A stretch of 64,000 nt of DNA, from the NCBI GenBank assembly GCA_944392295.1, contig CALXWE010000001.1, positions 67,239-131,238 on the forward strand. The letters run 5' to 3'. Below, piece by piece: positions 2,184 to 34,066 of this stretch. The notes beneath the pieces are model-generated. The model was not told the DNA's origin, ran no database searches, and saw only the letters and a list, made by a program, of their open reading frames with translations. Made by a program: the position numbers and the translations under genes. This DNA is from an uncultured Alphaproteobacteria bacterium (lineage in GTDB: Bacteria; Pseudomonadota; Alphaproteobacteria; RF32; CAG-239). Each line of letters starts with the position of its first letter. The first letter of the stretch is position 1.

Positions 2184-2188
<5 letters not shown>
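2111..2188. repeat. ~80-bp direct repeat copy 2, abutting and overlapping 3' end of tRNA-Phe
   Basis: Same sequence as 1897-1977; last 5 nt run into tRNA CCA end. Confidence 0.7.
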
Positions 2189-2259
<71 letters not shown>

Positions 2260-2857: not shown

Positions 2858-3559
2858 TTATACGTGCATCAGTACGCCGATAACCTTTCCTAAAACCTTT
2901 AATTGACCGGCATCTTGCGTGCGATATGCTTTATATTGCTGGTTATCACAGCTTATTTCCGTAGAACCATCCAAAGGTGAGGTTTGTAAACGCTTAATAT
3001 TAACCTCTCGTCCGCTGGCCAATAAATACAACCCGTCGGTCTCCGGCCTTTGGTAAGAAATATCAACCCAAACATAATCCCCCGGATTAATCGACGGTTT
3101 CATGGTATCGCTTACTATTTTAACAATTTTAATGTCTTGCGGATGCGAATAGGTAAAGTCAGCCAAAATGTTCTTGCTTATGTATTGCCTGCCGATAATG
3201 TTGTGCGCAAAATCGGTGCCGTCGATTTGCGGTTTTAATATGTCAATTACTGCCATTTCGCTATCTTCCGATGACGCGGTTTTTACAATTTCGGATATCA
3301 GATTTATATTTTTATCTGTTGAACTTGTTGCTTTTGAGGCAATAATTTCATCATCCATAAGCTCAATGTCGTCAATGCCCAGTAACTGAGCTAAGCGTGC
3401 GCGGTCGATTTCTTTTAAGCGGCGAGGGTAGCCGTATTTTACATATTGCTGCAAATAAGAATCTTTGCGCCCGATTTTGAGCGATAGCTCACGGTAATTA
3501 AAGCCTTTTTGTGCAATTAATTGGTCAATTTTTTTTCTTATATCTTCAATATCTGCCAT
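2858..3559 (-). CDS. phage CI/LexA-like repressor (XRE HTH + S24 peptidase domain)
   Basis: N-terminal HTH region (NYRELSLKIGRKDSYLQQYV), C-terminal S24-like segment with SDTMKP...NIKRL (Ser/Lys dyad). Confidence 0.8.
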   Translation of the reverse strand: MADIEDIRKKIDQLIAQKGFNYRELSLKIGRKDSYLQQYVKYGYPRRLKEIDRARLAQLLGIDDIELMDDEIIASKATSSTDKNINLISEIVKTASSEDSEMAVIDILKPQIDGTDFAHNIIGRQYISKNILADFTYSHPQDIKIVKIVSDTMKPSINPGDYVWVDISYQRPETDGLYLLASGREVNIKRLQTSPLDGSTEISCDNQQYKAYRTQDAGQLKVLGKVIGVLMHV

Positions 3560-3684
3560 TTATGCCTCCTTTAATTTTCATACACTATATATTAAAAATA
3601 ATATTTGTGCAAATATTATTTTTCATATTGACTTTTGAGCATGTGTCTTTTTATATTAATATTAATATAGCAAGGAGGTCGTAT
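3560..3684. promoter_or_regulatory. divergent promoter/operator region between repressor and rightward phage genes
   Basis: TTGACT at ~3628-3633 with AT-rich -10 candidates; RBS aaggagg before 3685. Confidence 0.4.
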
Positions 3685-4080
3685 ATGCAAGAAGTAAGCT
3701 CAATTGAAGATGTCGAATATGAAATTAAAAAAGCCATAAAAGTTTTGCGGGCTTTGCCTAAAGACGGACCATATAAGGCAAAATCGTCATGGCCCAAGTT
3801 TTTGCCGGAAAAACAAGATGAAGAATACCAAAAAATTTGCGTAAACTTTACACCGCTTCCTTCCGAAATTGACGATATGGATATGGTGTTTGAACAATGG
3901 TTTAAAGTCTTGGACAGGCAAGACCGCTTGCTGGTATTTTATAAAAATTTCGGGTATCGCGATAAAGTGTTAATGCGTATTTTTAATAAAGCCCGCAGTT
4001 CGCTGTTTGTACAATATAAAAAAGCTCTGCAGTCTATTCTAGATTACGTACTCGAACAACAAGTCAAACATTGCGCCTAA
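3685..4080 (+). CDS. hypothetical phage protein, candidate small terminase subunit by position
   Basis: ATG with aaggagg RBS; immediately upstream of large terminase; no motif recognised. Confidence 0.3.
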   Translation: MQEVSSIEDVEYEIKKAIKVLRALPKDGPYKAKSSWPKFLPEKQDEEYQKICVNFTPLPSEIDDMDMVFEQWFKVLDRQDRLLVFYKNFGYRDKVLMRIFNKARSSLFVQYKKALQSILDYVLEQQVKHCA

Positions 4081-4095
4081 CGGAGTACCACAAAT

Positions 4096-5418
4096 ATGCC
4101 CAAACACCCATCTCTTATTTTTTATGAAAAATATTTTCCGCTGCTGGAAATGGATAACGGTAAATACGATACTTTTGTTTTTACCGGCGGTCGCGGCTCA
4201 TTAAAAACCGGGCACGTTTGTCGGGCAGTTTTGGTGGCCATGATGCGCTCTAAAAAACGTGTTGCCGTGTTCAGAGAAACTAAAGTTTCCACCGAAGAAA
4301 GTCTGTATATTGAATTTAAAGAATTAATCAATAGCGAATTTTTTAATCGAGGGTTTGATTATTCTAAAAATAAAATCGTTCATAAATCCACCGGCTCGGA
4401 ATTGTTCTTTATGGGGTTGCAAGATAAAAATCAGAGTGCGCGCGAGAGCCTAAAAGGCTTGGCTCAGGTAGATATTTTATTAATCGACGAAGCCCAAGCC
4501 GTCAGCGCTGCCGTATGGAGCGTACTGTTAAAAACCATACGAAAACAAGGCGTCGTTTTAATTGTTATTTATAACCGTATAGATGACGACTTACCGGTTG
4601 AACAGGCTCTGTTTTTAGATTACGTTTCAATGTCGGCACCCGATAAAACTTATTTTGTAGAGGTAAACTATCCTGAGGTAGAACATTTAGGCGTGTTATC
4701 GGAAAAATTTTTAACCTACGCCGGTTTGATAAAACAAAACAAGCCCGATGAATATGAACGCGATTATCTAAACAAGCCCAAAGGCTCCGATGCCGCCAAA
4801 GTTGTTAAATATTGGTCGCCGGAAAACATTAATCCCGATATTCGCTATTGTGAAGATTTGGATATTTACTGGAGCCTTGATTTTAACGTTAATCCGGCTA
4901 TGTCAACGCTTGCTCATTACGATGGCAAAAAGTTTTTTGTTTTTGATGAATTAGTCTTAAATAATGTTATAACTCAGGACGTCGTCGATGAATTTATGCA
5001 TCGCTATCCGCCGGAAAAGGTTAGGGGAATAATTCAAATTTGCGGTGATGCTTCGGGCAAATATCGCAAGACCCAAAGCCGGTTTTCTGATTATGCCATT
5101 ATTGTTAATACGTTGGCTAAAAACGGGTATCATTATAAACTTAATTTACGTCCATTTAATCCGCCGATTATTGCCAGGGTTAATGCGTTTAACAAACAAG
5201 TTTTAACTGATGACGGTAACAGAAATGTACTGGTTCATCCAAGGTGTAAGTGGCTTATTTATAATATGAAAAATCTGCGTTACAAAGAAGGAACGAATAT
5301 CATCGATGAGGCAACGCCTTCGCAAATTGCTGATGATGACGCCAAACTTTACTTAGGACATATCTTTGATGCCGTAAGCTATATGGTAGAATTTTTTAAA
5401 CCAGTCGTTAAAGAATGA
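4096..5418 (+). CDS. terL: phage terminase large subunit (PBSX/Terminase_3-like)
   Basis: Walker A-like FTGGRGSLKTGH, Walker B VDILLIDEAQ, C-terminal nuclease-like region. Confidence 0.85.
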   Translation: MPKHPSLIFYEKYFPLLEMDNGKYDTFVFTGGRGSLKTGHVCRAVLVAMMRSKKRVAVFRETKVSTEESLYIEFKELINSEFFNRGFDYSKNKIVHKSTGSELFFMGLQDKNQSARESLKGLAQVDILLIDEAQAVSAAVWSVLLKTIRKQGVVLIVIYNRIDDDLPVEQALFLDYVSMSAPDKTYFVEVNYPEVEHLGVLSEKFLTYAGLIKQNKPDEYERDYLNKPKGSDAAKVVKYWSPENINPDIRYCEDLDIYWSLDFNVNPAMSTLAHYDGKKFFVFDELVLNNVITQDVVDEFMHRYPPEKVRGIIQICGDASGKYRKTQSRFSDYAIIVNTLAKNGYHYKLNLRPFNPPIIARVNAFNKQVLTDDGNRNVLVHPRCKWLIYNMKNLRYKEGTNIIDEATPSQIADDDAKLYLGHIFDAVSYMVEFFKPVVKE

Positions 5419-5473
5419 CTATTTTACTAAACTAATAAGAGAGTTACTTAAGCTTGAAAGGGGTGCTCTGTTT

Positions 5474-5660
5474 GATGACAAAACCGAACAAAATCGAACA
5501 TTTTCGAACATTTTTGCGCTGGACATTTTTTGTAAAAAAAGGCTATAAAAAAGCTATAATCGTAAGATCGAGTGCAAGCCATAAACTCTCACGATTATAT
5601 TTAAACTTAAACTGAAATTTTAACAACCAATACCGAAGCTCATAACTTCGGTATTTTTTT
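5474..5660 (+). repeat. cassette element copy A: 3 cgaaca iterons, promoter, stem-loop, intrinsic terminator
   Basis: Shares ...cgaacattttcgaacatttttgcgctggacattttttgtaaaaaaaggctataaaaaagctataatcgtaagatcgagtgcaagccataaactctcacgattat...taccgaagctcataacttcggtattttttt with copies C and D. Confidence 0.8.
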
Positions 5661-5749
5661 ACAAGAAGTAAAGCCCATGTTTTATTATGGGCTTTACAAA
5701 AATAAACAAAAGTTGTACTGTGTGAAAAAATCAACCGAGGAGGCTGTCA

Positions 5750-6658
5750 ATGAAAATAATTAAATATCTGATTGCGGAACTTTTGTTTATTATCTTAATT
5801 ATCAATAATTACGGTATGTTTGTTAATATGGATAAAGCCGATTTGGTTTGCATTAACGAGGGTATCAACAATTATCTGCAATTTGATTGGAATAGTTATT
5901 TTCATTGGTTCCGAGATGATATAAATACCGTTTGTCGTTTTGATACACAAAGCTTATTTATGTATTTTTGGTTTGTTCTTACTTATTATACCTTATTTAA
6001 AATCATTGCTCTCAAAATCTTCCCTGATAGCTTAAAAATAAAATTTTTGATTCCCGAAACTTTGGTTTACATATTGTCTTTCGGCATACGAATTGTTTGG
6101 ACCGATGGTTTTGAAGTAACATCCGGAAGTCTGCAAAACGCCGCTCTCGGTTTGATGTATATGTTCTCACCGTTCATTGTATATGTTATTATTGTATATT
6201 TAGCATACCACATGGCTGAGACCTATGGCAGGAAAATGCCGCAATCCGTTAAAAACTTATTTTTAAGTATTGGCTTGTTTATTTTTTCGGTAGTGGCATT
6301 TCCGCCGATATGGGCAATACTTTACAGCTTGTTGCTGCTGCCTTTTATTTTATGGTTTATTTACCTTTACATACCCCGACTATTCGTAAAATCTGTTGCC
6401 GATAAACAAACAACTCCTGCCTCTTATTTTTGTCTTAGGTTGCCTGCCGGAATCATCTTGTTTTTGGGATGTATCAGTTATGAAATTTTATTTTCAAGAC
6501 AGTATTACCGAGCTCTGTCTATAGAGGAGTTTTTCGCCTATTATATTTTGTGTACAACCTTTATCCGATTGACCTATTATCTGTTAATTGCTTTAATTTG
6601 GAATCCCAAAGCCGTTAAAAATTTTGTAAATAAACTACATTTAACTCAAAATACCTAG
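5750..6658 (+). CDS. integral membrane protein (multi-TM), cargo gene
   Basis: RBS gaggagg; many hydrophobic segments. Confidence 0.5.
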   Translation: MKIIKYLIAELLFIILIINNYGMFVNMDKADLVCINEGINNYLQFDWNSYFHWFRDDINTVCRFDTQSLFMYFWFVLTYYTLFKIIALKIFPDSLKIKFLIPETLVYILSFGIRIVWTDGFEVTSGSLQNAALGLMYMFSPFIVYVIIVYLAYHMAETYGRKMPQSVKNLFLSIGLFIFSVVAFPPIWAILYSLLLLPFILWFIYLYIPRLFVKSVADKQTTPASYFCLRLPAGIILFLGCISYEILFSRQYYRALSIEEFFAYYILCTTFIRLTYYLLIALIWNPKAVKNFVNKLHLTQNT

Positions 6659-6669
6659 AGCTTGAATAT

Positions 6670-7104
6670 TTATTCAAGCTCTACCACAAAGGTTGCAACC
6701 CCCAATCGTTGCCAATTTTCATCATAGGAATATTCTTTTATGTAGCGGGCGGTACATATCCCTTTGGCATCTTTAAGGAAACATTCTTCCGGTACATATC
6801 TGTAAAACTCGTCACTGCCGAAAATTTGACATTTTAAAATTATATAATCATTTTCATTTTCCAACAGCTGACAAGTATTAGTCGTCCAACCGTCCTTATA
6901 ATTATCGCCGTCTTTATGAATAACCGAGTTGGAGTAGCGTAGGGAATTGGGTGTTAAAAATGTTTCACGCGAATTAGACGATAAAGGAGATAATTGTTTA
7001 TAAAACAACGGATTTACAAATTTTTCTTCCTTCTCACTTCCGGCCCGCAATGAACATCCGACAATAAATAACACGCTTAATATTACCCATAAACTTTTTT
7101 TCAT
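6670..7104 (-). CDS. lipoprotein, Cys-containing, cargo gene
   Basis: Signal peptide with lipobox FIVGC. Confidence 0.5.
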   Translation of the reverse strand: MKKSLWVILSVLFIVGCSLRAGSEKEEKFVNPLFYKQLSPLSSNSRETFLTPNSLRYSNSVIHKDGDNYKDGWTTNTCQLLENENDYIILKCQIFGSDEFYRYVPEECFLKDAKGICTARYIKEYSYDENWQRLGVATFVVELE

Positions 7105-7168
7105 AATCTTATTTCCTTATACTTAATTTCCATAAATAATAATTAATCCCGGCTATTCCGTCAAAGAT

Positions 7169-7657
7169 TTACTTGTAATTTTTAAGAAAGCCATAAACGG
7201 CAAGTTCCTGTTTAATTTGCAATAATAGGGTATTAAGGTATTGCAAAACAATTTCTTTGGATTTTGCCATATTTTCCTGTTCGCATACAGTGCCGGCAGG
7301 AGTTGCATATTTATTTAAGCAATAAACAACCCCATAGGCCGATAATGTGGCTTTAACATAGTTGTTATAACTTGCCATATTACGCTCAAGATTATGATTA
7401 TAAAAAGTTTTCATAACCTTATCGGCAAGAGTGTTGGCACAATCAAATTGTCGAGAGCTTTCGGTACATAAAGATAATTCTTTTTGATATTGTGTGATGA
7501 GGGTGTAGTCATCAATTATATCTTTGATTTTTTCTTTACTGCTCCAATCGCTTTTAGCATACACATCATCTATATCAATACCATGGTAAATTTCCGCATT
7601 AACGTTTGTTGCAGATATTAAAAAGCTCAAAAGAGAAATAATGTATATTTTTTTCAT
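7169..7657 (-). CDS. secreted protein with signal peptide, cargo gene
   Basis: AAGGA RBS 8 nt upstream of ATG at 7657; N-terminal signal peptide ...ATNVNA; four Cys. Confidence 0.5.
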   Translation of the reverse strand: MKKIYIISLLSFLISATNVNAEIYHGIDIDDVYAKSDWSSKEKIKDIIDDYTLITQYQKELSLCTESSRQFDCANTLADKVMKTFYNHNLERNMASYNNYVKATLSAYGVVYCLNKYATPAGTVCEQENMAKSKEIVLQYLNTLLLQIKQELAVYGFLKNYK

Positions 7658-7751
7658 AATCAATTATCCTTATGCATAAAACCGATGAAACAAGTTTAGA
7701 TTTAATCCATAATATAAGCAACAACTTTTATAGTTAAAGCACAAGAAAATA

Positions 7752-7840
7752 ATATTTTAACTTAAACTAAAATTTTAACAACCAATACCGAAGCTCTTTG
7801 CTTCGGTATTTTTTTTATTTAAAAGAAAGGAAAATAAATC
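7752..7840 (+). repeat. cassette element copy B (3' part only: terminator hairpin + conserved RBS leader)
   Basis: ttaacttaaactaaaattttaacaaccaataccgaagctctttgcttcggtattttttttatttaaaagaaaggaaaataaatcATG. Confidence 0.75.
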
Positions 7841-8428
7841 ATGACAAATAAAAAATATAATCCATTTGCGGATATGTATAACTTTAATGCTAACAGTAAC
7901 AACTGGGTACAAAAGCTAGGATATAATGCGGATTTTTATAATAATCCGCTGGGCTATAACAGCTCACCCATCCCCAGACCTTATGATAACACAACAAAAT
8001 TAAATAATAATGTTCCTAAATATTGGGACAGTGCAAATGAGGGTAGAAAAGTTCTTGACTATGTAATACAAAAAGAAGGGAATATTACTCCTGAATCACA
8101 AGATTTTTTTGCATATGGAAAATCTGGTCTGACTGGAGGATTAAACACGATACAGAATTATATGTCTTTAAGAGATAAAAGATATACAGATAAGTACAAG
8201 CACGCACTTATAAATTGTAAGGCAGCTCAATCCGGAAAAGGAGGATACGATATTGTAAAATTTATTTCTGATTTAAAAGAAAAGAGTGATGTTAAAAATG
8301 GTCGCAATACTATTGACAGTAGTTTAAGTGATAACTATGCTAACGAAATAGGACGGCTGTTAGGAACAAAATATCGCAAAGGAGATTGTGATGCTCTCAT
8401 CCAACAATACATTAACAAAAATTGGTAA
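7841..8428 (+). CDS. MTNK-family protein with shared N-terminal module and unique C-terminal domain (candidate toxin/effector)
   Basis: First ~52 aa near-identical to 11801-13084 protein (MTNKKYNPFADMYNFNANSNNWVQKLGYNADFYNNPLGYNSSP.PRPYDNTT). Confidence 0.6.
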   Translation: MTNKKYNPFADMYNFNANSNNWVQKLGYNADFYNNPLGYNSSPIPRPYDNTTKLNNNVPKYWDSANEGRKVLDYVIQKEGNITPESQDFFAYGKSGLTGGLNTIQNYMSLRDKRYTDKYKHALINCKAAQSGKGGYDIVKFISDLKEKSDVKNGRNTIDSSLSDNYANEIGRLLGTKYRKGDCDALIQQYINKNW

Positions 8429-8557
8429 GTGGCTTATTATATCTTTTGTTTTCGTTGCGGGGCTTGTGCTTACTGCCCTTATTAGTTTGAGCTGTGTCTA
8501 CATCTTCAGCTTGTAACAGGTCTATAAAATTGTTTGAGTAAAACAAGGAGATTGCTG

Positions 8558-9349
8558 ATGAAAAAGGCTCTGTACATTCTTTTAGAGGTCTTGTTTATAT
8601 TTTTGATTGTAAATCATCGGGAATATTGGCTTGTTGCCAACCAAGCAGTCCGGGTAAACGGAGTTTATGTATGGCTTATCTTAACGGCTTATTCAGTCCT
8701 TAAAACATACGGAGCCTTTAATTGGAAACTTACCATAAAGCCTGTTTTTGTAATATGTGAACTATTGTTGTTTATATTATCAGGTTGCGTTTTGGGATTA
8801 TACACCCAAAGTTTGCCAGTAACCGCACAAATATACACTGTATTTTTACCCTTAATTTTTTATGTTTTGGTATTGGGGATGGGATGGTATATACTGCTTA
8901 AAAACAACCCGACAATAAACGATTTTACCACCCATTGCCAACAGCATTCCAAACGTTATCTTGCTTTGATTTGGTTTTTGGCTGCCTTGTTTATATGTCC
9001 GCCGATTTTAACCGTTGTTTACAGCAAGGTATGGTTTGTGCTGATACTGATGGGAATATATGTGTTTTTGCCGTATAAAATAAGTACTTTGTTGCTCAAA
9101 GATTTATCGTTACACAAATTCTTTTCATTAGGAAAAGTAATTCCCGTAATGTTGATAATTTTTGTTCAGATAAATCTGGAAGCGATACTCAGTGGCTTTT
9201 GTTTTTACGGATCTTGGTTGGATGCTTATAGGGTGGTAAAATACATAATAATTGTTGCCGTTTTGCGATTTATTATTTGCGGCTTAATATTATGCGTATT
9301 AGATTACAAACAAATTAAAGGATTATTTATAACAGCCAAAACAAAATAA
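8558..9349 (+). CDS. integral membrane protein (candidate immunity protein)
   Basis: ATG with AAGGAG RBS; multiple TM helices. Confidence 0.5.
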   Translation: MKKALYILLEVLFIFLIVNHREYWLVANQAVRVNGVYVWLILTAYSVLKTYGAFNWKLTIKPVFVICELLLFILSGCVLGLYTQSLPVTAQIYTVFLPLIFYVLVLGMGWYILLKNNPTINDFTTHCQQHSKRYLALIWFLAALFICPPILTVVYSKVWFVLILMGIYVFLPYKISTLLLKDLSLHKFFSLGKVIPVMLIIFVQINLEAILSGFCFYGSWLDAYRVVKYIIIVAVLRFIICGLILCVLDYKQIKGLFITAKTK

Positions 9350-9377
9350 ATAAGGTTAATCATATAAGAGGTGATTT

Positions 9378-9914
9378 ATGGAAGAAGGAACACAAAAGCC
9401 AGAAGAAGATGACGCATTGTTCAAAGAGGATGCCAAGACCATATATTTTTCATTTGAAGGGGTATTCGGTCGCATACAATTTTTTATAGTAGCGGTTACC
9501 CTCGGTGGTTTTATGGATTTAATGAGTACGGGAAATAATATAGTACTCGTGGTCATAGGCACAGCCATAGTATTTTATGCGATGCTGGCAGCGATTCAAA
9601 AACGCAGTCGTGATATGAATATTGGCGGTAGTTTGTTTATTTTATTGTATTCTCTGAGTTTTCCGATAAGTCGGATGATGTTATACGGTAGGGATACTGG
9701 AAATCCGATAATTATCCATAACGACATAATTCGGAAAAGTTTTTACGGAGCGTTAATAGGATATTTGATAGTATCATTACTTTTGGTGCTTATGCCCGGA
9801 GCAAAGAAGAAGGATATGAGCAAAAGGAGTCCGTTATTAAAAAATCCTCCGCTGTATTTTTTAATATGCGTAATAATTTATGCCATAGTCGCCTATTTTA
9901 TCAGAGATTTATAG
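9378..9914 (+). CDS. DUF805-like inner membrane protein
   Basis: YFSFEGVFGRIQFF motif resembles DUF805 signature; several TM segments; terminator hairpin ccaaagagggagg...ctccctcttt downstream. Confidence 0.45.
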   Translation: MEEGTQKPEEDDALFKEDAKTIYFSFEGVFGRIQFFIVAVTLGGFMDLMSTGNNIVLVVIGTAIVFYAMLAAIQKRSRDMNIGGSLFILLYSLSFPISRMMLYGRDTGNPIIIHNDIIRKSFYGALIGYLIVSLLLVLMPGAKKKDMSKRSPLLKNPPLYFLICVIIYAIVAYFIRDL

Positions 9915-9984
9915 CTTGTAAGAGATTACCAAAGAGGGAGGATAAAAACTCCCTCTTTAGTATTTTAAAAGCAAATAAGTGAGA

Positions 9985-10273
9985 GGGAAACCGCTCTCAA
10001 AAAGGACAAAAACGGCGTATTTAATGACAAAACCGAACATTTCCGAACATTTTCGAACAAAAATGAACAATTCCGAACAAAATCGAACATTTTCGAACAT
10101 TTTTGTGCTGGACATTTTTTGTAAAAAAAGGCTATAAAAAAGCTATAATCGTAAGATCGAGTGCAAGCCATAAACTCTCACGATTATATTTTAACTTAAA
10201 CTAAAATTTTAACAACAGATACCGAAGCTCATAACTTCGGTATTTTTTTATTTAAAAGAAAGGAAAATAAATC
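9985..10273 (+). repeat. cassette element copy C (full: 7 iterons, promoter, stem-loop, terminator, RBS leader)
   Basis: Near-identical to 11505-11800. Confidence 0.85.
10145..10259 (+). ncRNA. candidate short terminated leader transcript (stem-loop ataatcgt...acgattat + intrinsic terminator taccgaagctcataacttcggta-T7)
   Basis: Promoter-like TGGACA/TTGTAA with TATAAA/TATAAT upstream; strong terminator ~110 nt downstream and 14 nt before next ATG. Confidence 0.35.
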
Positions 10274-10531
10274 ATGACAAATAAATTAATCACTGTAGCT
10301 GGTAAATATGCAGCTAAAAAAGTTCGTAATAAAACCGTTAATAAGGCCATGGAAAAAATAAGCGAGCCATATGAAAAATTCAAAAAAGAGGTTTTCAGTA
10401 TAAAACCTCTAAATGTTGGGGAAAGAGAAACCATAAAATGTTTACAAAATCGTCATAACACCTTAGACTATTGCAAGAATATAGGAAACAAGGCAAGGAA
10501 AGCTTATCAAAAATCCGGAAAATATAGGTAA
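10274..10531 (+). CDS. small basic protein starting with MTNK leader
   Basis: Shares cassette RBS and first 4 codons with other MTNK genes. Confidence 0.45.
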   Translation: MTNKLITVAGKYAAKKVRNKTVNKAMEKISEPYEKFKKEVFSIKPLNVGERETIKCLQNRHNTLDYCKNIGNKARKAYQKSGKYR

Positions 10532-10595
10532 CTTTTTATTAAAACAAAAGTACTCATCAATACGGACAATATGCACTGTGTAACGGGAAGATAAT

Positions 10596-10856
10596 ATGAA
10601 AAAGATAGTACTGTTTATAATTGGTCTTATGTGTATACCGCCGATATTGGGGTATTTGACAACATATGTGAGTAACAATCCTGAATGTGAAGTATACACC
10701 GGATTTTGGGGAGTGCTGTATCTATTTATTTATATTCTTTTTCCTTTGTTATATAAAGGGAAAATAAAACAAGCTATGAATAGATATGCTTTTTATGCCT
10801 TGTTGTACGGCATTTTGTTTCTGATAATAAATATATTACTTATTTGTTTTAATTAG
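10596..10856 (+). CDS. small membrane protein
   Basis: Three hydrophobic segments in 86 aa. Confidence 0.4.
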   Translation: MKKIVLFIIGLMCIPPILGYLTTYVSNNPECEVYTGFWGVLYLFIYILFPLLYKGKIKQAMNRYAFYALLYGILFLIINILLICFN

Positions 10857-10906
10857 ATGTAATGAAGCTGTAAAAAGCAGCAAGATTATAATGGTAAATA
10901 GAAAGG

Positions 10907-11416
10907 ATGGCAGAAATGAAGAATATAATATTTTTACTGCTGGCAGTACTAATGCCGACATTGAGTTTAGCAGCAGAAGAAAAGTCAACATTTACATATG
11001 AAGCAGAAAAATGTTCCGGTGAAGAAGATGTATTTATACGAGGTTTAGAGGAAGAATTAGCTAATTGTAAAATTCAAATGCCGGATAATCCATCTACGGC
11101 AGATATGAATAATGCCACTTATGATTTTGGCGATTGTTGTATTGCTGTAGCCAATAAACTTTTTGATAGAAATTACAAAAAGTATAATGAGCAGGTAAAA
11201 CAGGATTTTGATGCACTTGTCAAAGCATTTTATGCAAATGCTCATGATATGGTTCAACATAGCGATTTTGGACTTTTAAGAGGAGGAACTATGTACAATA
11301 CGGAAGCCATTGCTACGGGGGCTTTTTGGATTAGAGATGTGGTAAAAGAATACCTTTATCAAGCACGAATGGAATGCGATGATAAGGCAGGATTTGATTC
11401 ACTGGATATAGAATAG
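10907..11416 (+). CDS. secreted protein with signal peptide
   Basis: MAEMKNIIFLLLAVLMPTLSLAAEEK signal peptide; Cys-containing. Confidence 0.45.
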   Translation: MAEMKNIIFLLLAVLMPTLSLAAEEKSTFTYEAEKCSGEEDVFIRGLEEELANCKIQMPDNPSTADMNNATYDFGDCCIAVANKLFDRNYKKYNEQVKQDFDALVKAFYANAHDMVQHSDFGLLRGGTMYNTEAIATGAFWIRDVVKEYLYQARMECDDKAGFDSLDIE

Positions 11417-11504
11417 ATTATTTTAATCAAACAATGAAAAAGAGGCTTATAAAAGTCTCTTTTTTGTGCTTTTAAAGAAAGGAAAAATAAGTTAGGCTAG
11501 ATAA

Positions 11505-11800
11505 AAGGATAGGGAAATTGTTTCTAAAACGGACAAAAACGGCGTATTTAATGACAAAACCGAACATTTCCGAACATTTTCGAACAAAAATGAACAATTC
11601 CGAACAAAATCGAACATTTTCGAACATTTTTGTGCTGGACATTTTTTGTAAAAAAAGGCTATAAAAAAGCTATAATCGTAAGATCGAGTGCAAGCCATAA
11701 ACTCTCACGATTATATTTTAACTTAAACTAAAATTTTAACAACAGATACCGAAGCTCATAACTTCGGTATTTTTTTATTTAAAAGAAAGGAAAATAAATC
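11505..11800 (+). repeat. cassette element copy D (full)
   Basis: Near-identical to copy C, including 7 cgaaca iterons at ~11558-11632. Confidence 0.85.
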
Positions 11801-13084
11801 ATGACAAATAAAAAATATAATCCATTTGCGGATATGTATAACTTTAATGCTAACAGTAACAACTGGGTACAAAAGCTAGGATATAATGCGGATTTTTATA
11901 ATAATCCGCTGGGCTACAACAGCTCACCCACTCCCAGACCTTATGACAACACAACTGTCTTTGGTGCAGATGATGACAATGAAGTTGTAAGTGGGTTTAA
12001 GCCTCAAACCCCTCGGACAACAAGCTTAAATAACGGATTTAATGTTAATAAGCAGCAACCGTCCATGGGTAATATGTCAAGCTTTAACCTTAAAGGAAAT
12101 AATAACGCTTCTGACTTTAATACGGGCAGTAGCAACTGGGTGCAAAGGTTAGGGTATAATGCGGACTTTTATAATAATCCGCTGGGCTATAACAGCTCGC
12201 CAACTCCCAGACCTTATGACAACACAACTGTCTCTGGTATAAATAACAGCTTTAATATTAATAACCGACAGCCTTCTTTAAGCGGATTGGAAAGTTACAA
12301 TCAACCTCAAAAGAAGCAGTATACTAACCCTAAAGTAAAACCCTTTACTTCATGGGATATTGCTTTATCAGCTCTTGAAGGATTTGGAGAGGGAGCAGCC
12401 GGAGGAACTGAAAATATTATGAATGGACTAACTTTGGGAGGATATGGGATTGTTAGTGATAAATTAGGGTTAGGTATGAAAGAAAGAAAAACAAAATTAC
12501 AACTTTCCTCAGATTATGCTGGTGTAGGAGATGTTTTTAATGTAACCAATAAAGGGACATATTTAATTGGAAATGGATTGTTATTATACCTATTGCGATC
12601 AAAAGGGATACCGGCTATTGGACAAGCTTATAATATATACAATATTTTTAATGGAAGTCGTAACCTTGCAAACCAATTGCACAGAGGTAGCAATTTTAAG
12701 GATATTTACATGGGGAAGATTGATAAAAATAAATTTAATCAAATTAATGATATTAGACTAGGTTTAGGCGAGGCTCCTATTTTATCCAGACAAGTAAAAA
12801 TCCCCAAGCAAAATGTACAACATATTTGGGATAGGCGAATTAATATTGGACAATCTAAACCCAGAGAAGTTGCAAATTATGTGAAAGATAGCATTTTTAG
12901 TAAAGATAGTCAGGTGTTTCCAGGTAATGTCTCTCGTAACCAGGTGATTATTAAAACGGGTGATAAACACCCCAGTATGAGTGTTATATCAAAAGATGAT
13001 ATATTTGATGGTATATCGGTAAGAAGTTCTATGCAGAAAGATTTGCCAAGCCTATTAAAAAAATATCCCGATTTAAAATACTAA
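11801..13084 (+). CDS. MTNK-family protein, N-terminal module present twice, Gly-rich linker, unique C-terminal domain (candidate toxin/effector)
   Basis: Residues 1-52 and ~107-150 repeat SNNWVQ(K/R)LGYNADFYNNPLGYNSSPTPRPYDNTTV; C-terminal ~250 aa unrelated to 7841 protein. Confidence 0.6.
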   Translation: MTNKKYNPFADMYNFNANSNNWVQKLGYNADFYNNPLGYNSSPTPRPYDNTTVFGADDDNEVVSGFKPQTPRTTSLNNGFNVNKQQPSMGNMSSFNLKGNNNASDFNTGSSNWVQRLGYNADFYNNPLGYNSSPTPRPYDNTTVSGINNSFNINNRQPSLSGLESYNQPQKKQYTNPKVKPFTSWDIALSALEGFGEGAAGGTENIMNGLTLGGYGIVSDKLGLGMKERKTKLQLSSDYAGVGDVFNVTNKGTYLIGNGLLLYLLRSKGIPAIGQAYNIYNIFNGSRNLANQLHRGSNFKDIYMGKIDKNKFNQINDIRLGLGEAPILSRQVKIPKQNVQHIWDRRINIGQSKPREVANYVKDSIFSKDSQVFPGNVSRNQVIIKTGDKHPSMSVISKDDIFDGISVRSSMQKDLPSLLKKYPDLKY

Positions 13085-13404
13085 AGTGGCTTTGGATGGA
13101 CGGTGTTTCCCATCATTACAACACAAATACGTCGTGTTCTGCAGTTGCACCGATTTTCTGCTCTTCAAAGCCACTACATTTATGTAGTATTTGTCACTAC
13201 ATAAAATATGCATTAGGTTGACAAATAACCTAATAACATTGATATGTTAAGCTAAAAACAACAATTTGTCAATCATATTGATTATCTGTATTTTTTAATA
13301 TGCGTAATAGTTTATTCCATAGTCGCCTACTTTATCAGAGATTTATAGTCTGTAAGAGATTACCAAAGAGGGGGTAAAAGCTCCCTCTTTGGTATTTTAA
13401 AAGC

Positions 13405-13515
13405 AGACAAGGGATAGGGAAATCGCTCTCAAAACGGACAAAAACGTCTTTAATTTTAACAACCAATACCGAAGCTCATAACTTCGGTATTTTTTTATAA
13501 TAAGAAAGGAAAATA
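13405..13515 (+). repeat. cassette element copy E (deletion derivative: upstream part joined directly to terminator + RBS)
   Basis: gggaaatcgctctcaaaacggacaaaaacg...ttttaacaaccaataccgaagctcataacttcggtattttttt; upstream 13290-13400 duplicates 9850-9960 (3' end of 9378-9914 gene). Confidence 0.75.
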
Positions 13516-15294
13516 ATGTTCGCATATACTCTTGAAAAAGAAAGCTTTATGTCAACGGGAAATCCCGATGATAAGCGGGCAGTAGTTCAAGATGTGGTGG
13601 ATTTATTCACATCTTGGGATACTGTTCGTACTAAACAAAAAAATATTGCCGATAAGTTGCATTCGGAAATCTATCTGGATGACCGAAAAAAAACTTATGT
13701 CCCGGAAGATGACGAATGGAAATCGGATATCCATCTTAATAAAATCTATTCGTTATTCCAAACACATCAGGCCTACATTTGGGATAATATCTATTCTAAT
13801 GTGGAAAATATGTTTGATGTTGAAGGAATTGATGATCTTTCGGCACAAACGGCTTTGTTGCAAAAACAAAAACTGGTTAATACCTTTTATAATATCGGTA
13901 TTCAACGCAAGCTGGATACCGCTATTGAGCATTTAGACAGTGTCGGTGAAATTTGTTTGTTTATCGGTTGGCAAAAAAAATATAAACAAATCCGCCGTCG
14001 TTTGGATAAATTCAGCTCCTCTGCCGATAAGCCCTTGCTTACTCAAGGCTTGTTCGGGGTGTTTAATCAGGAAATTTATAACGGAGCCGATGTTGAGGCC
14101 ATTAACCCGCTCAATTTGGTATTTGACCCCAGGGTTAATCCTGACGATAAGGAAAAATGGAATGCCTGCGGTAAAATTATTAAATCATGGGAAACATATC
14201 AGTCGGTAGCTTCCAATAAATTGTATAATCTTAAAAAAGAAGAGCTTGATGATTTGCATAAAATGTTAAACTCTCCTTCCAAAGATGAAGATCGTTCGGA
14301 AACAGATAAAACCGATGATGTGGTTGATAGCGATAGGGTTGAGGTTTTACAATATTGGGGAGATTATGTTACCCCAAAAGGCGATGTTTTAAAAAACTGG
14401 CATATCGTAGTTATCGGTCGTAAATATCTGGCGGTGTTTGAACCTAATCGCTGGGTAATTAACCCGATTATCAATATGGCTTTATTTAGGGATATCAACA
14501 GTAAGCGAGGTATTCCCGAATTATGGTCCATTTACGATATATGTAAGGAACAGGAAAATAAAGTAAACTTACAAAATGATGCTCAATCACTTAACCTAAA
14601 TCCTCCGGCCTATGCTCCGGAGGGTTTTTTTAAGGAGGAAAAAGTAAAACTCTTCCCCGGTAAACAAGTGGAATACAAACAGGGTCTTGAAGATCCCGGA
14701 GCAATCATCAAAATGCAGTTTCCGTTGTTCAGTAATGAAAATATTATTCAGTATTATGACAATACGGCTTCAAGCGTAAGCGGTATTTTTCCCAATATGC
14801 AGGGACAACAGGAAGTAAGCAAAGCTACGGCCACCGAAATAAGCATTAAGGTTCAGGGACAAACCACGCGTTTGGGTAAAACTTTGGATACCATCAAGCA
14901 AAATGTTATTGTCCCGATGGTGCAAAAAGTTGCCGAACTTGAAGCTAATATGAAATTCGGTGATGAGGTTTTAAAGCTTAACATTTTGGGGTATCCGGTT
15001 ACCAAAACCATTGATGATGTGGTGCGTCAGGGCAATTATGAATATCGTTATACCGATAATACCGGTATTCAGAAAAAGCTTAACACCAATCAAACGCTTA
15101 TTCAGATTTTTACGCAAATCTGGAATGATGAAAGCGTCCCCTTAAACAAACTGCAAATTGTTAAAGAAGTACTGCGTAATGCCGGCATAGAAAATACCGA
15201 AAAGTTTTTTCTAAGCCAAAATCAAATTCCGGCAGCCAATCAAAATACAGCGGCGGCTGGTGTCAACAATAATCTTTTACCCGTTCAAAAGTAG
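13516..15294 (+). CDS. putative portal protein
   Basis: 592 aa, first structural gene after terminase/cargo, followed by scaffold and capsid genes. Confidence 0.55.
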   Translation: MFAYTLEKESFMSTGNPDDKRAVVQDVVDLFTSWDTVRTKQKNIADKLHSEIYLDDRKKTYVPEDDEWKSDIHLNKIYSLFQTHQAYIWDNIYSNVENMFDVEGIDDLSAQTALLQKQKLVNTFYNIGIQRKLDTAIEHLDSVGEICLFIGWQKKYKQIRRRLDKFSSSADKPLLTQGLFGVFNQEIYNGADVEAINPLNLVFDPRVNPDDKEKWNACGKIIKSWETYQSVASNKLYNLKKEELDDLHKMLNSPSKDEDRSETDKTDDVVDSDRVEVLQYWGDYVTPKGDVLKNWHIVVIGRKYLAVFEPNRWVINPIINMALFRDINSKRGIPELWSIYDICKEQENKVNLQNDAQSLNLNPPAYAPEGFFKEEKVKLFPGKQVEYKQGLEDPGAIIKMQFPLFSNENIIQYYDNTASSVSGIFPNMQGQQEVSKATATEISIKVQGQTTRLGKTLDTIKQNVIVPMVQKVAELEANMKFGDEVLKLNILGYPVTKTIDDVVRQGNYEYRYTDNTGIQKKLNTNQTLIQIFTQIWNDESVPLNKLQIVKEVLRNAGIENTEKFFLSQNQIPAANQNTAAAGVNNNLLPVQK

Positions 15295-15306
15295 AAAGTA
15301 TTTATC

Positions 15307-15507
15307 GTGGATTTAATAGAGCTTCGTGAACTGATGCGTTCCGAAAAGGGTCGGCTGTTGTTACGCTACCTTACGGATTTTATGGTTGAAGTTTCCACCC
15401 GCGGTAATGCCAATGCCGAATGGATAAAAGGTATGGGCATGCTTATCAATCACTTAAAAGAAATTGATGAAATATGCCAAAAATTAAATGAAGAAAAAAG
15501 GAGATAA
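15307..15507 (+). CDS. small phage protein
   Basis: ORF in head-morphogenesis cluster. Confidence 0.35.
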   Translation: MDLIELRELMRSEKGRLLLRYLTDFMVEVSTRGNANAEWIKGMGMLINHLKEIDEICQKLNEEKRR

Positions 15508-15509
15508 AA

Positions 15510-16499
15510 ATGACAATTAAAACAAAATCAACACCTTCACAGCGTTTGACGGATAACTCCTCTGATATATTTGTTGCGGATACCTCTCTAAAAGAGCCTG
15601 AAGCAGTATATCAAGAGCCCGTAAGCGATGCTATGGAAGCTGATGTTAATGATAAAGCCTTGGAAGATGGCGGTCTTATCTTTGGTAAGTTTAAGACCAT
15701 GGAAGAGGCTCAAAAAGGCTATAAAGAGGCGGAACGAGCCATCACGCGAGCCGCCGATTTGGAAAAAGAACTGCAAAACTACCAGTATCTTTCCAAAGCT
15801 TATGAAGAAGATGCCATAGCTAGGCAGAACGGTTATTCCGATCGTTTGGAAATGGCACTTAATCATGATGTAAAGCAACATGAACTTGACAGTTATGCCT
15901 TGGCGGCCAGCCATACATTACCGTATCAGGCTCAGTTGGAAGTTGCTCAATTGATAAATACGTGCCGCCTTGGTGGTACGGAAAAGGAATTCAACCTTTT
16001 ACGGCAGTATTTTCCGCCGCAAGTGGTGGCATTAGTTTCCGAAGATGCGGCTTTATACAAAAATTCGCGTCAGGGCGAGTTTGATAATATCCGCAGTAAC
16101 GATAAAGCCATTCGTTATGCTCGGAAATTGCATGAATTCCGCAATCAAAACGAGAGTTGGTTTGATTCTCCCTTAAAAGAAGACCTTATAAATCAGGCTC
16201 TGGAAGTCTCGGACGGCAGAGTAGATTTAAACGGGCTTAAAAAAATGGCCGATGCCGTAGTGGAAGAAGCTCTCAAAAAATATCAAACCGGTCAGGATAC
16301 GGCGTATCAAAATGCTCTGATGCAAGACAGCTTGCAAACTCCGGGCAATGATAACACGCGTATCAAAAACAAAAAATGGCTTACCAAGGATGAGTATTAC
16401 AAACTCACTCCGGCACAGGAAGCCGAAAAATATGATTTAATCGTGGAACAGGTTTTGCTTGAAAAACAAGGCAAGTTACCGCGTATGTTAACCAAATAA
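15510..16499 (+). CDS. putative scaffolding protein
   Basis: Acidic, helical, low-complexity; directly upstream of capsid gene. Confidence 0.5.
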   Translation: MTIKTKSTPSQRLTDNSSDIFVADTSLKEPEAVYQEPVSDAMEADVNDKALEDGGLIFGKFKTMEEAQKGYKEAERAITRAADLEKELQNYQYLSKAYEEDAIARQNGYSDRLEMALNHDVKQHELDSYALAASHTLPYQAQLEVAQLINTCRLGGTEKEFNLLRQYFPPQVVALVSEDAALYKNSRQGEFDNIRSNDKAIRYARKLHEFRNQNESWFDSPLKEDLINQALEVSDGRVDLNGLKKMADAVVEEALKKYQTGQDTAYQNALMQDSLQTPGNDNTRIKNKKWLTKDEYYKLTPAQEAEKYDLIVEQVLLEKQGKLPRMLTK

Positions 16500-16523
16500 T
16501 TTAATTTTTGAAAGGAAAAAACT

Positions 16524-17462
16524 ATGTCAACAAATGCAGAAACTTTAAACAGACAATTATCCGCCATTATTCCTGAAGTATGGAGTATGTCTTTAACCAA
16601 AGGTTTGGATAAATCCGGTGTGGGAATGAAGGTAGTTAACCGTATTCACGAAGCCGATACTCACGAATACGGCGATACCGTAAACATCGGTGAATTGGGT
16701 GATGTAACCATTTCCGATTACTCGGAAGATGTATCCTCAGGCGGAGTAAATTACCAAAGAATTGATGCCAAAAATCAGCAATTAAAGCTTGATCAAAGCA
16801 AGGCTTTCGGTATTTTTGTTTCCGATATCAGCAACAAACAAGGCAACATTAAAGACTTGCAGTCTAAAATTGAAGCCAAAGCCAAAACGGCAATTGATTT
16901 GGCCAAAGATACCTATATCCTTTCGGCATTTTCGGAAATTCCTGAGGAAAACAAACTGGATAACATTACTTTAACTCCCGATAATGCTTATAAGTGCTTG
17001 GTATGGTTGTCTAAAACCTTAAAGAACAATAACGCCATTCAACTTAAAAACGATCAGGTGTTTAAGTCCAATCAAGCCGGCGGCGATGCCATGCCGTATG
17101 TAATAATCAATCCGGATGTTGAAGCAATTTTATTGCAATCACCCGATTTTATTCATGCTACCCAAGCCGGCGACAGAGTGTTGCGTGAGGGTTCAATCGG
17201 TACCATTGCCGGATTGGATGTTTTGGTATCTACCAACTTGCCGACAACCGAGAAAAAAGTCAACATTATGGCCGGTATCAACGATGCCATTGCCTTTGTG
17301 GGCAATATTTCGCATATTGAGGCCATTCGTGACGAAAAATTCTTCGGCACCAATATCCGCGGCTTATATGTTTACGGTAAAAAAGTAGTTTTACCAAAAG
17401 CCTTAGCCGGTATGACGGTAGATGTAAGTGCAGCTGATTCCATTGTGGAAGCTGCGGCTTAA
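16524..17462 (+). CDS. major capsid protein
   Basis: 312 aa, strong RBS, followed by strong terminator hairpin at ~17500-17546. Confidence 0.6.
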   Translation: MSTNAETLNRQLSAIIPEVWSMSLTKGLDKSGVGMKVVNRIHEADTHEYGDTVNIGELGDVTISDYSEDVSSGGVNYQRIDAKNQQLKLDQSKAFGIFVSDISNKQGNIKDLQSKIEAKAKTAIDLAKDTYILSAFSEIPEENKLDNITLTPDNAYKCLVWLSKTLKNNNAIQLKNDQVFKSNQAGGDAMPYVIINPDVEAILLQSPDFIHATQAGDRVLREGSIGTIAGLDVLVSTNLPTTEKKVNIMAGINDAIAFVGNISHIEAIRDEKFFGTNIRGLYVYGKKVVLPKALAGMTVDVSAADSIVEAAA

Positions 17463-32618: not shown

Positions 32619-33240
32619 ATTTCCATTGGACATAGAGAGCACAGCTTTGCTCATTACAGATGTTGCAAAGAGCATCAAGGTCATTCAATGATATATGACC
32701 TAAACATTTCAAGTTTGCGCCATTACAATATTTATCTCCATATACTGCGCCTTCATTAGTATATTTATCATCATTGGTATATTTTTTTTGAGTAAAGACG
32801 GTATATAAATCGTTACTGTTAGGTTTTACGGCGTTAACAACATTATAACATATTTCTTTTCCCTGAACTGAAGGCTCAAAGCGTAAACCCATTCCGTTAT
32901 TATTTTTGGAAGAATATATCCATACATCATTATTAAATATGTCTTTAAATACGGCAGAATTAGACTTATAAGTTATACCGTCAGGAATCATATTAAGTTT
33001 TTTCAGAATGGATGTATAATAAATTGCCCCATTAGCATCTACAGTATCACCGCTGTCAATTTCATTAACTATCTGCAATGAATTATTAAGAAGTATACTT
33101 ATAGATTCTGCTTGTTTATTGAGCTTATATTTAAACATAGCTTTAGAGTAGCCGGAGAGTGCACCGACGGAAAGTACACCGATGATGGCTAAAACTCCTA
33201 ACATCTCGACCATACTTCTACCCAGTTCATTAAATTTCAT
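32617..33240 (-). CDS. type IV pilin-like protein, paralog 1
   Basis: Prepilin N-terminus MKFNELG|RSMVEMLGVLAIIGVLS (E at +5), C-terminal Cys pair and ...WK end. Confidence 0.75.
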   Translation of the reverse strand: MKFNELGRSMVEMLGVLAIIGVLSVGALSGYSKAMFKYKLNKQAESISILLNNSLQIVNEIDSGDTVDANGAIYYTSILKKLNMIPDGITYKSNSAVFKDIFNNDVWIYSSKNNNGMGLRFEPSVQGKEICYNVVNAVKPNSNDLYTVFTQKKYTNDDKYTNEGAVYGDKYCNGANLKCLGHISLNDLDALCNICNEQSCALYVQWK

Positions 33241-33325
33241 CTAAAACCTCCGAGTTTTGGGTTGTTAAAGGGCTTTAAACGAAATCATAAACCGTTTTTT
33301 TTTTTTGCAATCAAAAAGAGTCTTT
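33241..33325 (-). promoter_or_regulatory. conserved pilin upstream element (promoter/5'UTR) with poly-T tract
   Basis: ctaaaacctccgagttttgggttgttaaagggctttaaacgaaatcataaaccg-T12-gcaa shared by 6 paralogs. Confidence 0.6.
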
Positions 33326-33357: not shown

Positions 33358-33984
33358 CTACTTCCACACTGCATATAATCTGCATCTTGTAGCATCATTA
33401 GCGCAATTATTACATAAGATATCAATATCATTTAATGTCATATCTTTAATACAATTATCCGATGAATTACAATATTTATTACCATAAAATCTTCCCATTA
33501 TTTGAGCATTTTCTTTATCATCAGCAGTAAATTTATCAGAAGACACATAGTACAGAATATCCATATGTTGTTTGTACATATTAAAGAGATTAAAACAAAT
33601 TTCTTTATCATTATTATTAGATGTAAAATTGTATCCTATACCAAAAGCTGTCGGATAAGCATATACCCATATACTATTTCCGAACGGATCTACTAAAATT
33701 TTCGGATTATTTACATCTAATCTGACACCATCAGGAAGAAGTCCTAGTTTATCCATTGTTTGTGCAAGAAACAATGCATCGGTAGTGGACGAAGTGTTAT
33801 TAATCTTAGGCATTAGTTGAAAAGCATTCATAAATAAGAAATTAAAGGCTTCGGCTTGTTTATTTAGCTTATATTTAAACATTGCTTTAGAGTAGCCGGA
33901 AATAGCACCGACGGAAAGTACGCCGATGATGGCTAAAACGCCGAGCATTTCGACCATAGAACGACCAAGTTCATTAAATTTCAT
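33358..33984 (-). CDS. type IV pilin-like protein, paralog 2
   Basis: Same N-terminus; divergent C-terminal domain with Cys-rich tail. Confidence 0.75.
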   Translation of the reverse strand: MKFNELGRSMVEMLGVLAIIGVLSVGAISGYSKAMFKYKLNKQAEAFNFLFMNAFQLMPKINNTSSTTDALFLAQTMDKLGLLPDGVRLDVNNPKILVDPFGNSIWVYAYPTAFGIGYNFTSNNNDKEICFNLFNMYKQHMDILYYVSSDKFTADDKENAQIMGRFYGNKYCNSSDNCIKDMTLNDIDILCNNCANDATRCRLYAVWK

Positions 33985-34066
33985 CTAAAACCTCCGAGTT
34001 TTGGGTTGTTAAAGGGCTTTAAACGAAATCATAAACCGTTTTTTTTTTTTGCAACTTTAAAAGGAA
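33985..34066 (-). promoter_or_regulatory. conserved pilin upstream element
   Basis: Same 80-bp element, T12. Confidence 0.6.

Follow-up and report, generated by a model that had tools for sequence, protein, structure and literature searches.

Phage morons are promoter-gene-terminator units in the late operons of lambdoid phages. Late genes of phage-derived clusters can also be placed under the control of terminators that have to be bypassed: GafZ allows three 150-bp terminator repeats of CcGTA to be read through (PMC11150451), and BrrG, a Q21-like protein, is a processive antiterminator in BaGTA (bioRxiv 10.1101/2024.11.20.624540). A sigma-4-like fold is common to Q21, BrrG, GafZ, and GafA (bioRxiv 10.1101/2024.11.20.624540). 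A -10-like element located 5 bp after the -10 is functional at P_bgtA-K and at lambdoid pR', and a sigma-dependent pause element of such geometry is needed both by lambdoid Q and by BrrG at P_bgtA-K (bioRxiv 10.1101/2024.11.20.624540). Here, we describe a family of promoter-leader-terminator modules in a phage-like element of an uncultured alphaproteobacterium. The DNA analyzed is a stretch of 64,000 nucleotides (the window) with a GC content of 38%; it comes from a diderm bacterium and encodes an autotransporter and ThrRS. Judged from its sequence, the module is a real, non-random composite regulatory cassette, and it also appears to be a PeSL-like shuffling unit with modular parts.

The modules lie within a repressor-controlled, phage-like element of ~21 kb (window positions 2372 to ~24700). 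At its left end are a 109-amino-acid gene and a CI/S24 repressor gene (both on the minus strand), an operator/promoter region, a DUF6362 gene, and TerL; these are followed by the cargo region, a T7-like portal, the major capsid protein, tail genes, and an endolysin. The CI/LexA-like repressor (positions 2858 to 3559, minus strand; HTH plus S24 peptidase) was recognized by Pfam (Peptidase_S24, 2.4e-10) and PHROG (transcriptional repressor, 1.5e-18), and its gene runs divergently from the structural operon. Between the repressor gene and the operon promoter is a near-perfect palindrome (AATATTTGTGCAAATATT, positions 3600 to 3617, plus strand), which is kept in the relative L052. The main operon promoter, TTGACT-N18-TATATT (positions 3628 to 3657, plus strand), has the same arrangement in that relative. 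A second palindrome (ATATATCAATATTGATATAT) was seen at positions 2741 to 2760, 5' of the 109-amino-acid minus-strand gene; both palindromes are probably operators. The first gene of the operon (positions 3685 to 4080, plus strand) encodes the 131-amino-acid DUF6362 protein, which has a sigma-region-4-like HTH. The large terminase gene (TerL; positions 4096 to 5418, plus strand; Terminase_3, 2.5e-19) forms the left border of the cargo region, and the portal gene (positions 13516 to 15294, plus strand; PHROG 332 and 1216) forms the right border. Homologues of the portal number 242 at an E value of ≤1e-10, many of them on ~20-kb contigs. Within the element (2372 to 24700), no integrase or replication gene was recognizable, and a megablast search of positions 5000 to 15000 against phage genomes gave no match. 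The element may be GTA-like or defective, and the whole element, being repressor controlled, without an integrase, and furnished with toxin-like cargo, may be a more interesting object than the module itself.

Several features of the surroundings were also recorded. Directly left of the element is a tRNA gene (positions 2187 to 2259, minus strand) that may mark where the element is bounded or attached; a PLD-like nuclease gene is found at 1280 to 1822. In the window, L049, and L052, the element is adjoined by UDP-glucose dehydrogenase. A 237-nt repeat is present in five copies, 68 to 87% identical (33074 to 33310, 33818 to 34054, 45889 to 46125, 54791 to 55027, and 57634 to 57870), which fall in minus-strand ORFs of ~200 to 212 amino acids, and similar genes are present in L054 at 814 to 2185; these repeats are a dispersed paralogous gene family of the host chromosome. 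Seven tandem 54-nt repeats (62556 to 63067) lie inside an ORF near the window end, and 156-nt tandem repeats (40772 to 41453) lie within a 1,017-amino-acid autotransporter (AIDA, pertactin, and beta-domain).

The feature common to all copies of the module is a 23-nt hairpin, TACCGAAG-CTCATAA-CTTCGGTA, which is present at positions 5631, 10220, 11747, and 13467, with a loop variant at 7786. All five hairpins are in plus-strand orientation and lie downstream of TerL and upstream of the portal, and each heads an accessory ORF group. The hairpin followed by T7 gave five matches in the window compared with 0.00 expected (100 shuffles); it folds as an 11-bp stem (dG of -12.8 kcal/mol, z of -6.7; -16.5 for copy B) and is followed by U7. 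By sequence, the terminator is canonical and highly non-random. The preliminary description had recognized it in three copies, always with iterons and promoter; the hairpin and T-run are real but number five, of which three (A, C, and D) are full modules and two (B and E) keep just the 3' end of the leader and the terminator. The full modules form a 300-nt repeat family (A, 5392 to 5691; C, 9981 to 10280; D, 11508 to 11807), in which identity is 97% between C and D and 70% for A. Copy A (5485 to 5660, plus strand) comprises three CGAACA repeats, the promoter core, the leader, and the hairpin at 5631 to 5653 with its T7 extending to 5660, and it has a second hairpin between the T-run and the ATG. 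Copy D (11561 to 11776, plus strand; hairpin at 11747 to 11769) is the promoter module closest to the portal and structural genes on their 5' side. Copy B (7749 to 7816, plus strand) consists of the 3' half of the leader, the hairpin at 7786 to 7808 with a CTCTTTG loop, and T8, without iterons or promoter, and copy E (13452 to 13496, plus strand) consists of the 3'-terminal 13 nt of the leader, then the hairpin at 13467 to 13489 and T7, without a promoter.

In copy C, the terminator (11-bp stem, 7-nt loop, and U7) occupies positions 10217 to 10249 on the plus strand and is followed by the SD (AGAAAGGAAAA) and ATG (10257 to 10276, plus strand) of an 85-amino-acid ORF (10274 to 10531). From the end of the T-run (10249) to the ATG (10274), there is a gap of 24 nt, not the 14 nt initially reported. 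The same gap of 24 nt is found in B and D; it is 89 nt in A and 19 nt in E, where the start codon is that of the portal gene and no promoter intervenes. Terminator-like sites as a class are frequent between positions 3000 and 17000 (29, versus 10.1 ± 2.8 expected). A GC-rich hairpin with a weak T tail (9931 to 9958, plus strand; dG of -19.1) closes the preceding cassette and recurs at 13367 to 13390. Scanning with the 23-nt hairpin gave no matches in viral contigs and 47 loci in genome contigs. Three of these came from one related MAG, which is labeled Alphaproteobacteria and is the closest genome match obtained for the window, and the other 44 were discarded as unrelated terminators from other phyla whose stem is identical. 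A promoter inside the hairpin (TTAACA-N17-TAACTT) was ruled out, as its would-be -10 is altered in copy B.

Upstream of the leader, module C begins with an array of seven (C/T)GAACA repeats phased at 10 bp (10034 to 10099, plus strand), which begins after ATGACAAAAC. Arrays always start after this sequence and contain 3 to 11 repeats each; in most arrays of the related MAG, the repeat unit is CGGACA. TTYCGAACA occurs 9 times compared with 1.74 expected, so that the iteron-like repeats described previously are real. The array is followed by an invariant promoter core (CTGGACATTTTTTGTAAAAAAAGGCTATAAAAAAGCTATAAT, 10107 to 10149, plus strand) that holds two pairs of hexamers, TGGACA (10108 to 10113) with TATAAA (10133 to 10138) and TTGTAA (10119 to 10124) with TATAAT (10144 to 10149). 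The hexamers had been correctly identified, as had the 19-nt spacer of the second pair, but the spacer of the first pair is also 19 nt and not 18 nt. Such spacers are unfavorable, and because of them neither pair was listed by a consensus scan for spacers of 16 to 18 nt. Promoter-like matches are not enriched in the AT-rich region from 3000 to 17000 (63, versus 54.6 ± 7.8 expected), so that it is conservation, and not score, that speaks for the promoter. Both TATAAA and TATAAT are invariant in all eight distinct promoter-bearing copies (four strains), while the bases between and after them vary, and the -35-like hexamer of these copies is either TGGACA or TAGACA. The -10-like TATAAT thus lies 5 bp 3' of the -10 TATAAA, and the promoter spacer contains an AT-only inverted repeat (TTTTTTGTA/TATAAAAAA). 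Scans with the promoter core gave no matches in either viral or metagenome contigs, and the CGAACA array with its promoter core is limited to the window's lineage. A Bacteroidetes-type promoter was ruled out, the motif being absent and the genes using strong SD sequences. Promoter activity, the TSS, and termination efficiency are given here as predictions from the DNA sequence.

The leader starts with an inverted repeat (10144 to 10188, plus strand) with 13-nt arms (10144 to 10156 and 10176 to 10188) that are 92% complementary. The stem-loop ataatcgt/acgattat of the preliminary description is therefore real and longer than was stated, and it starts exactly at TATAAT; in the relative L011, the arms of this 5' hairpin are 19 nt and 95% complementary. 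Since the 5' arm overlaps TATAAT, it would be present in the RNA only if TATAAA were the -10. With TATAAA as the -10, the predicted TSS is at ~10145 and the RNA is ~105 nt, beginning with the 5' hairpin; with TATAAT, the predicted RNA is ~94 nt and is without the 5' arm. The short default product proposed earlier is retained at the sequence level, with its predicted length revised from ~110 nt to ~94 to 105 nt. A conserved AU-rich linker (UUUUAACUUAAACUAAAAUUUUAACAAC, 10189 to 10216, plus strand) connects the 5' hairpin to the terminator. In the MFE structure of a read-through transcript, the leader word CACGAUUAUAUUUU (10178 to 10197) pairs with the SD-AUG region (10255 to 10277) across the terminator (z of -2.6), and this word is also complementary to codons 4 to 7 of ORFs B and D (7852 and 11812); the pairing with the SD-AUG region could mask translation or could be a chance AU-rich match. 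GTGCAA, which the leader has in common with the operator at 3600 to 3617, was considered as a repressor operator and dropped (18 occurrences of the motif, versus 14.75 expected).

We propose that the full module is a late-type pR'-tR' unit that has been multiplied at the heads of cargo cassettes between the terminase and the portal. The 10-bp-phased CGAACA array would be a putative binding site for a regulator, a sigma-70-type promoter (T(G/A)GACA-N19-TATAAA) would drive the module, and the TATAAT located 5 bp 3' of the -10 would act as a sigma-dependent pause and loading site; the 5' hairpin, the AU-rich linker, the strong intrinsic terminator, and the SD/start codon of the next gene would follow in that order. 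By default, transcription would stop at U7 and yield an RNA of ~95 to 105 nt. A processive antiterminator would render RNA polymerase terminator resistant and allow the cargo genes to be expressed, and polymerase starting from module D would pass three further terminators to transcribe the portal-to-lysis genes. The factor responsible and its mode of action we infer. From the sequence features, this lambda pR'-tR'-type arrangement with antitermination is the best-supported mechanism, and we consider the chances of its being correct to be about even. It gains strength from the -10-like element, the position of the portal, and the Q21-like candidate protein described below. Against it stand the 19-nt spacers of both hexamer pairs, the lack of enrichment of promoter-like matches, a promoter part in L011 that is without a terminator, and the finding of no double-sided compensatory base-pair changes among six distinct copies.

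The position of the structural genes bears directly on this proposal. The closest promoter module (D) is 1.8 kb 5' of the portal and behind the terminators at 11747 and 13367, and ~7 terminators lie between the main operon promoter and the portal. With the portal behind several terminators and without a promoter of its own, we infer that either very leaky terminators or processive antitermination would be needed. The differing terminators that L011, L050, and L051 have at this place, and those inside the structural operons of relatives (see below), also point to a need for read-through. The lambda pR'-6S-tR'/Q logic that was suggested initially is upheld at the sequence level by the conserved promoter, the -10-like TATAAT, and the terminator, which are three of the four components of the Q circuit as laid out in bioRxiv 10.1101/2024.11.20.624540.

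As the candidate trans-acting factor, the DUF6362 protein was analyzed. Its only protein family match is PF19889. A structure model obtained after aligning 13 sequences had a pLDDT of 81.5; an earlier model from 5 sequences was unusable (pLDDT of 45.6). Foldseek returned sigma-4 matches with probabilities of 0.97 to 0.99 and non-significant E values (>0.5), and comparison with a viral library gave matches to sigma-4/ECF-like and DUF1492 phage regulators. Pfam, NCBIfam, and PDB sequences gave no connection of the protein with Q, GafZ, or AlpA, and a profile search of PDB sequences with DUF6362 returned nothing. Identification of the protein as GafZ was rejected by family name, as GafA-family homologues are annotated as DUF6456 (PMC9638019) and not as DUF6362. 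According to the model, the resemblance to Q21/GafZ is at the fold level only, and the similarity to Q21 may rest largely on a shared sigma-4-like HTH. The modeled fold indicates that DUF6362 is a transcription factor and makes it a candidate for a Q21-like antiterminator, an array-binding late activator, or both; other possible identities are a late activator of the RinA type and a small terminase. One caveat is that DUF6362 is conserved in the distant relatives L052 and L053, which are without the iteron/promoter module. Co-variation between DUF6362 and the repeat sequence was not visible, since the repeats remain of the GAACA type in a strain whose protein is 82% identical.

A second reading, which we regard as unlikely, is that the module is a PeSL-like insulating and shuffling cassette, in which ordinary, partly leaky terminators end moron units and dampen read-through and a promoter restarts the next cassette with no dedicated antiterminator. 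The main significance of the module would then be as a repeated recombination substrate. A composite that joins promoter, stem-loop, SD, and ATG and stands between core genes in a hyperplastic region matches the description of PeSL (PMC2839356, PMC4122927), and cassette content does vary between strains with identical TerL: L054 and L056 have the same arrangement as the window, and L055 and L057 have extra cassettes. Copy B is an exact crossover product, its left flank and CTCTTTG loop being those of the L055 copy at 14169 and its right flank, SD, and ORF being those of the L055 copy at 16172. The crossover lies inside the hairpin and removes ~2 kb, which is the cassette indel between the identical-TerL strains. 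The related MAG, whose portal is 99% identical, has a rearranged cargo region; the breaks fall within the repeats, at ~+20 of the leader, and immediately 5' of the hairpin. L011 has the promoter part fused directly to a gene remnant, without a terminator, at ~3000, the hairpin behind unrelated sequence at 4856, and a variant hairpin (GATACCCGGCG/CGTCGGATATC plus T6; dG of -19.2) before the same SD and ORF. The rearrangements in L011 and the breakpoints in hairpin and repeats show that promoter, leader, and terminator are separable parts and that the copies are recombination substrates; being near-identical, the copies serve, under the antitermination proposal too, as crossover points at which cassettes are added, deleted, and swapped between strains. 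In relatives, contigs end within the hairpin or within the repeats, and the module would explain why assemblies break between the terminase and the portal. The separability of promoter and terminator, the terminator plus SD as a conserved unit, and the modules as points of cassette exchange had all been missed in the preliminary description.

More distant relatives were also compared. L052 and L053 share the backbone and carry cargo with a Tlde1 domain in the interval from TerL to the portal, and their ordinary moron-like promoter-gene-terminator units also favor the PeSL-like reading. L050 has two unrelated terminators directly 5' of the portal SD. L051 carries a repeated double terminator of its own. 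The same SD (AGAAAGGAAAA) follows it, and this unit stands before the portal, a later gene, and no fewer than five cassettes; terminator-like sites in L051 number 34, versus 10 ± 2.9 expected. In L048, whose TerL is 77% identical, a different intergenic palindrome (GATCCCTT..hairpin..AAGGGATGAC) without a T-run is found at 1176 to 1320, 2793 to 2900, 4945 to 5062, and 7286 to 7360. These palindromes sit at gene-block junctions, and the block order is unlike that of the window. Further intergenic terminators are located within the structural operons of relatives. As relatives carry terminators of their own at equivalent sites, the conserved design is one or more terminators immediately 5' of an SD. 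Several points weigh against the PeSL-like reading. The terminator is between the promoter and the gene, whereas a restart design needs it upstream of the promoter; the portal would be behind up to three strong terminators when transcribed from the closest promoter, or ~7 from the operon promoter; leaky terminators alone would lead to very low structural-gene expression; and the invariant -10-like element is left unexplained.

The genes downstream of the hairpins are unrelated to one another, and their products include polytopic membrane proteins and secreted proteins. Two cargo proteins have a common N-terminus, and one of them has an SAA-like domain. Toxin-like cargo was located at 7841 to 8428 and 11801 to 13084 in the window, 3619 to 4401 in L051, 8411 to 9112 in L052, and 8467 to 9162 in L053. 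The shared cargo N-terminus (MTNKKYNPFADMYNFNANS..NWVQKLGYNADFYNNPLGYNSSPTPRPYDNTT) is duplicated in a 427-amino-acid protein, and the C-termini are variable, SAA-like in the window and Tlde1_dom in relatives. From their sequences, these cargo proteins look like polymorphic toxins. The polytopic membrane proteins come after the toxin-like genes and could be immunity genes; in L011, the toxin-like gene is truncated and the downstream membrane genes are kept.

It is less probable still that the short RNA is itself the product, the module being a three-copy prophage sRNA gene whose RNA would act in trans on mRNAs of the host or the phage. In favor of this, the 5' hairpin, linker, and terminator form when the 108-nt RNA is folded, with z scores of -4.6 in the window and -9.9 in L011, and copy-to-copy variation is confined to the inner 5' hairpin, where G-C changes to G-U at three pairs, and spares the linker. 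At the gathering threshold, Rfam found only a tRNA in the window. At an E value of ≤5, the best match to the leader scored 21.9 bits against a 43-bit cutoff, so that no family was identified. A search for trans targets gave no convincing candidate, the best antisense matches being AU-rich words of 11 to 14 nt. B, E, L050, and L051 retain only the terminator and SD, and the fixed 24-nt distance to the start codon argues for a role in cis.

We assign a slightly lower probability again to the possibility that the array and its AT-rich core are a DNA-level site (an origin, a pac/terminase-binding site, or a partition site) or that the leader is a leftward antisense or convergent promoter. Phased direct repeats beside an AT-rich block, varying in number from 3 to 11, would suit such a site, and the minus strand of the linker reads TTGTTA-16-TAAAAT/TTAAAA-18-TATAAT, which is kept in copies A to D and in copy B faces minus-strand genes (7663→6670). 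By sequence, a leftward promoter in the linker may serve the minus-strand genes beside copy B. The details fit an iteron-type origin poorly. The repeats have 6-bp cores at a 10-bp period, unlike iterons of 17 to 22 bp; three or four arrays per genome would be unusual for an origin or pac site; and no Rep-like or Par-like gene was found. Arrays of 6 to 11 CGAACA units are also present outside the element, at 5044 to 5099 in L054 (~850 nt left of window position 1) and at 4817 to 4922 in L055, where they precede a 414-amino-acid gene and a 94-amino-acid membrane/coiled-coil gene. The array before this unrelated 414-amino-acid gene is followed by a different core and SD and is without a terminator, which suggests a regulator shared with the module arrays; a transcription factor regulon is therefore a better fit than an origin.

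A riboswitch or classical attenuator, also raised in the preliminary description, in which the leader would change between antiterminator and terminator folds in response to a ligand, a tRNA, a leader peptide, or an RNA-binding protein, is very improbable: the promoter-leader-terminator-gene order would fit and UUUUAAC words repeated beside the terminator are a possible protein-binding site, but the ~60-nt, AU-rich leader is nearly unstructured, shows no pairing that competes with either terminator arm in MFE and centroid folds, has no Rfam family and no ORF, is reduced to just 13 nt in copy E, and precedes mutually unrelated genes.

Returning to antitermination, a more far-reaching form of the proposal is that DUF6362 represents a new Q21/GafZ-like family of antiterminators loaded at multi-copy, recombinogenic pR'-like cassettes, and that these cassettes gate the toxin-like cargo and structural genes of an integrase-less, domesticated podovirus-like particle (GTA-like or toxin delivering) that is widespread in gut Alphaproteobacteria. 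We hold this only tentatively and think it doubtful as a whole. If antitermination at the module is correct, these little-studied gut Alphaproteobacteria would contain a compact and easily testable antitermination circuit, the uncharacterized DUF6362 family would gain a function, and another independent alphaproteobacterial phage-derived element would join CcGTA and BaGTA under terminator bypass. One repeated regulatory cassette would then both gate late expression and drive the exchange of toxin-like cargo between strains.

With the lambdoid pR'/Q systems (lambda Q, Q21, and Q82), the locus shares a strong intrinsic terminator ~100 nt after the promoter and ahead of morphogenesis/lysis genes, a -10-like hexamer just 3' of the -10, further terminators inside the late operon, and a small sigma-4-like candidate protein, resembling Q21, that is encoded upstream. 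It differs from them in having three full and two terminator-only copies, a phased repeat array upstream of a promoter with a 19-nt spacer, and a terminator directly (24 nt) before the start codon. The candidate protein is without sequence similarity to the Q families and is the first gene of its operon, not the last early gene. For lambdoid phages, pR'-like units in multiple copies are not known, which is a further point against the proposed mechanism.

CcGTA with GafZ/terGTA and BaGTA with BrrG/T_bgtA-K are, like this element, alphaproteobacterial phage-derived clusters where polymerase has to get past repeated or strong terminators close to the beginning of the structural genes, and their factors have sigma-4/Q21-like folds. 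[quoted passage not shown] In contrast to these systems, the element has no homology to GafY, GafZ (DUF6456), or BrrG, possesses a CI-like repressor and a T7-like portal, uses short canonical hairpins and not 150-bp GC-rich repeats, and has cargo cassettes interleaved with its terminators.

The PeSL of T4-like phages (PMC2839356, PMC4122927) are similarly short, conserved composites of a sigma-70-like promoter and terminator stem-loop that end in an SD and start codon. They too are clustered in hyperplastic regions around non-essential ORFs, and recombination between copies likewise produces indels between close relatives, the breakpoints here being in the hairpin, iterons, and leader. In PeSL, the position of the stem-loop is inside the promoter or overlapping it, and transcription arriving from upstream is halted there, whereas the terminator here is ~75 to 100 nt downstream of the promoter. 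Upstream repeat arrays are present here, and the host is a small temperate or defective podovirus-like element and not a T4-like myovirus.

As with phage morons, accessory genes flanked by transcription signals of their own interrupt the series of core structural genes, and late read-through is required. Unlike in morons, the order here is promoter-terminator-gene, and the signals form a repeated, near-identical family.
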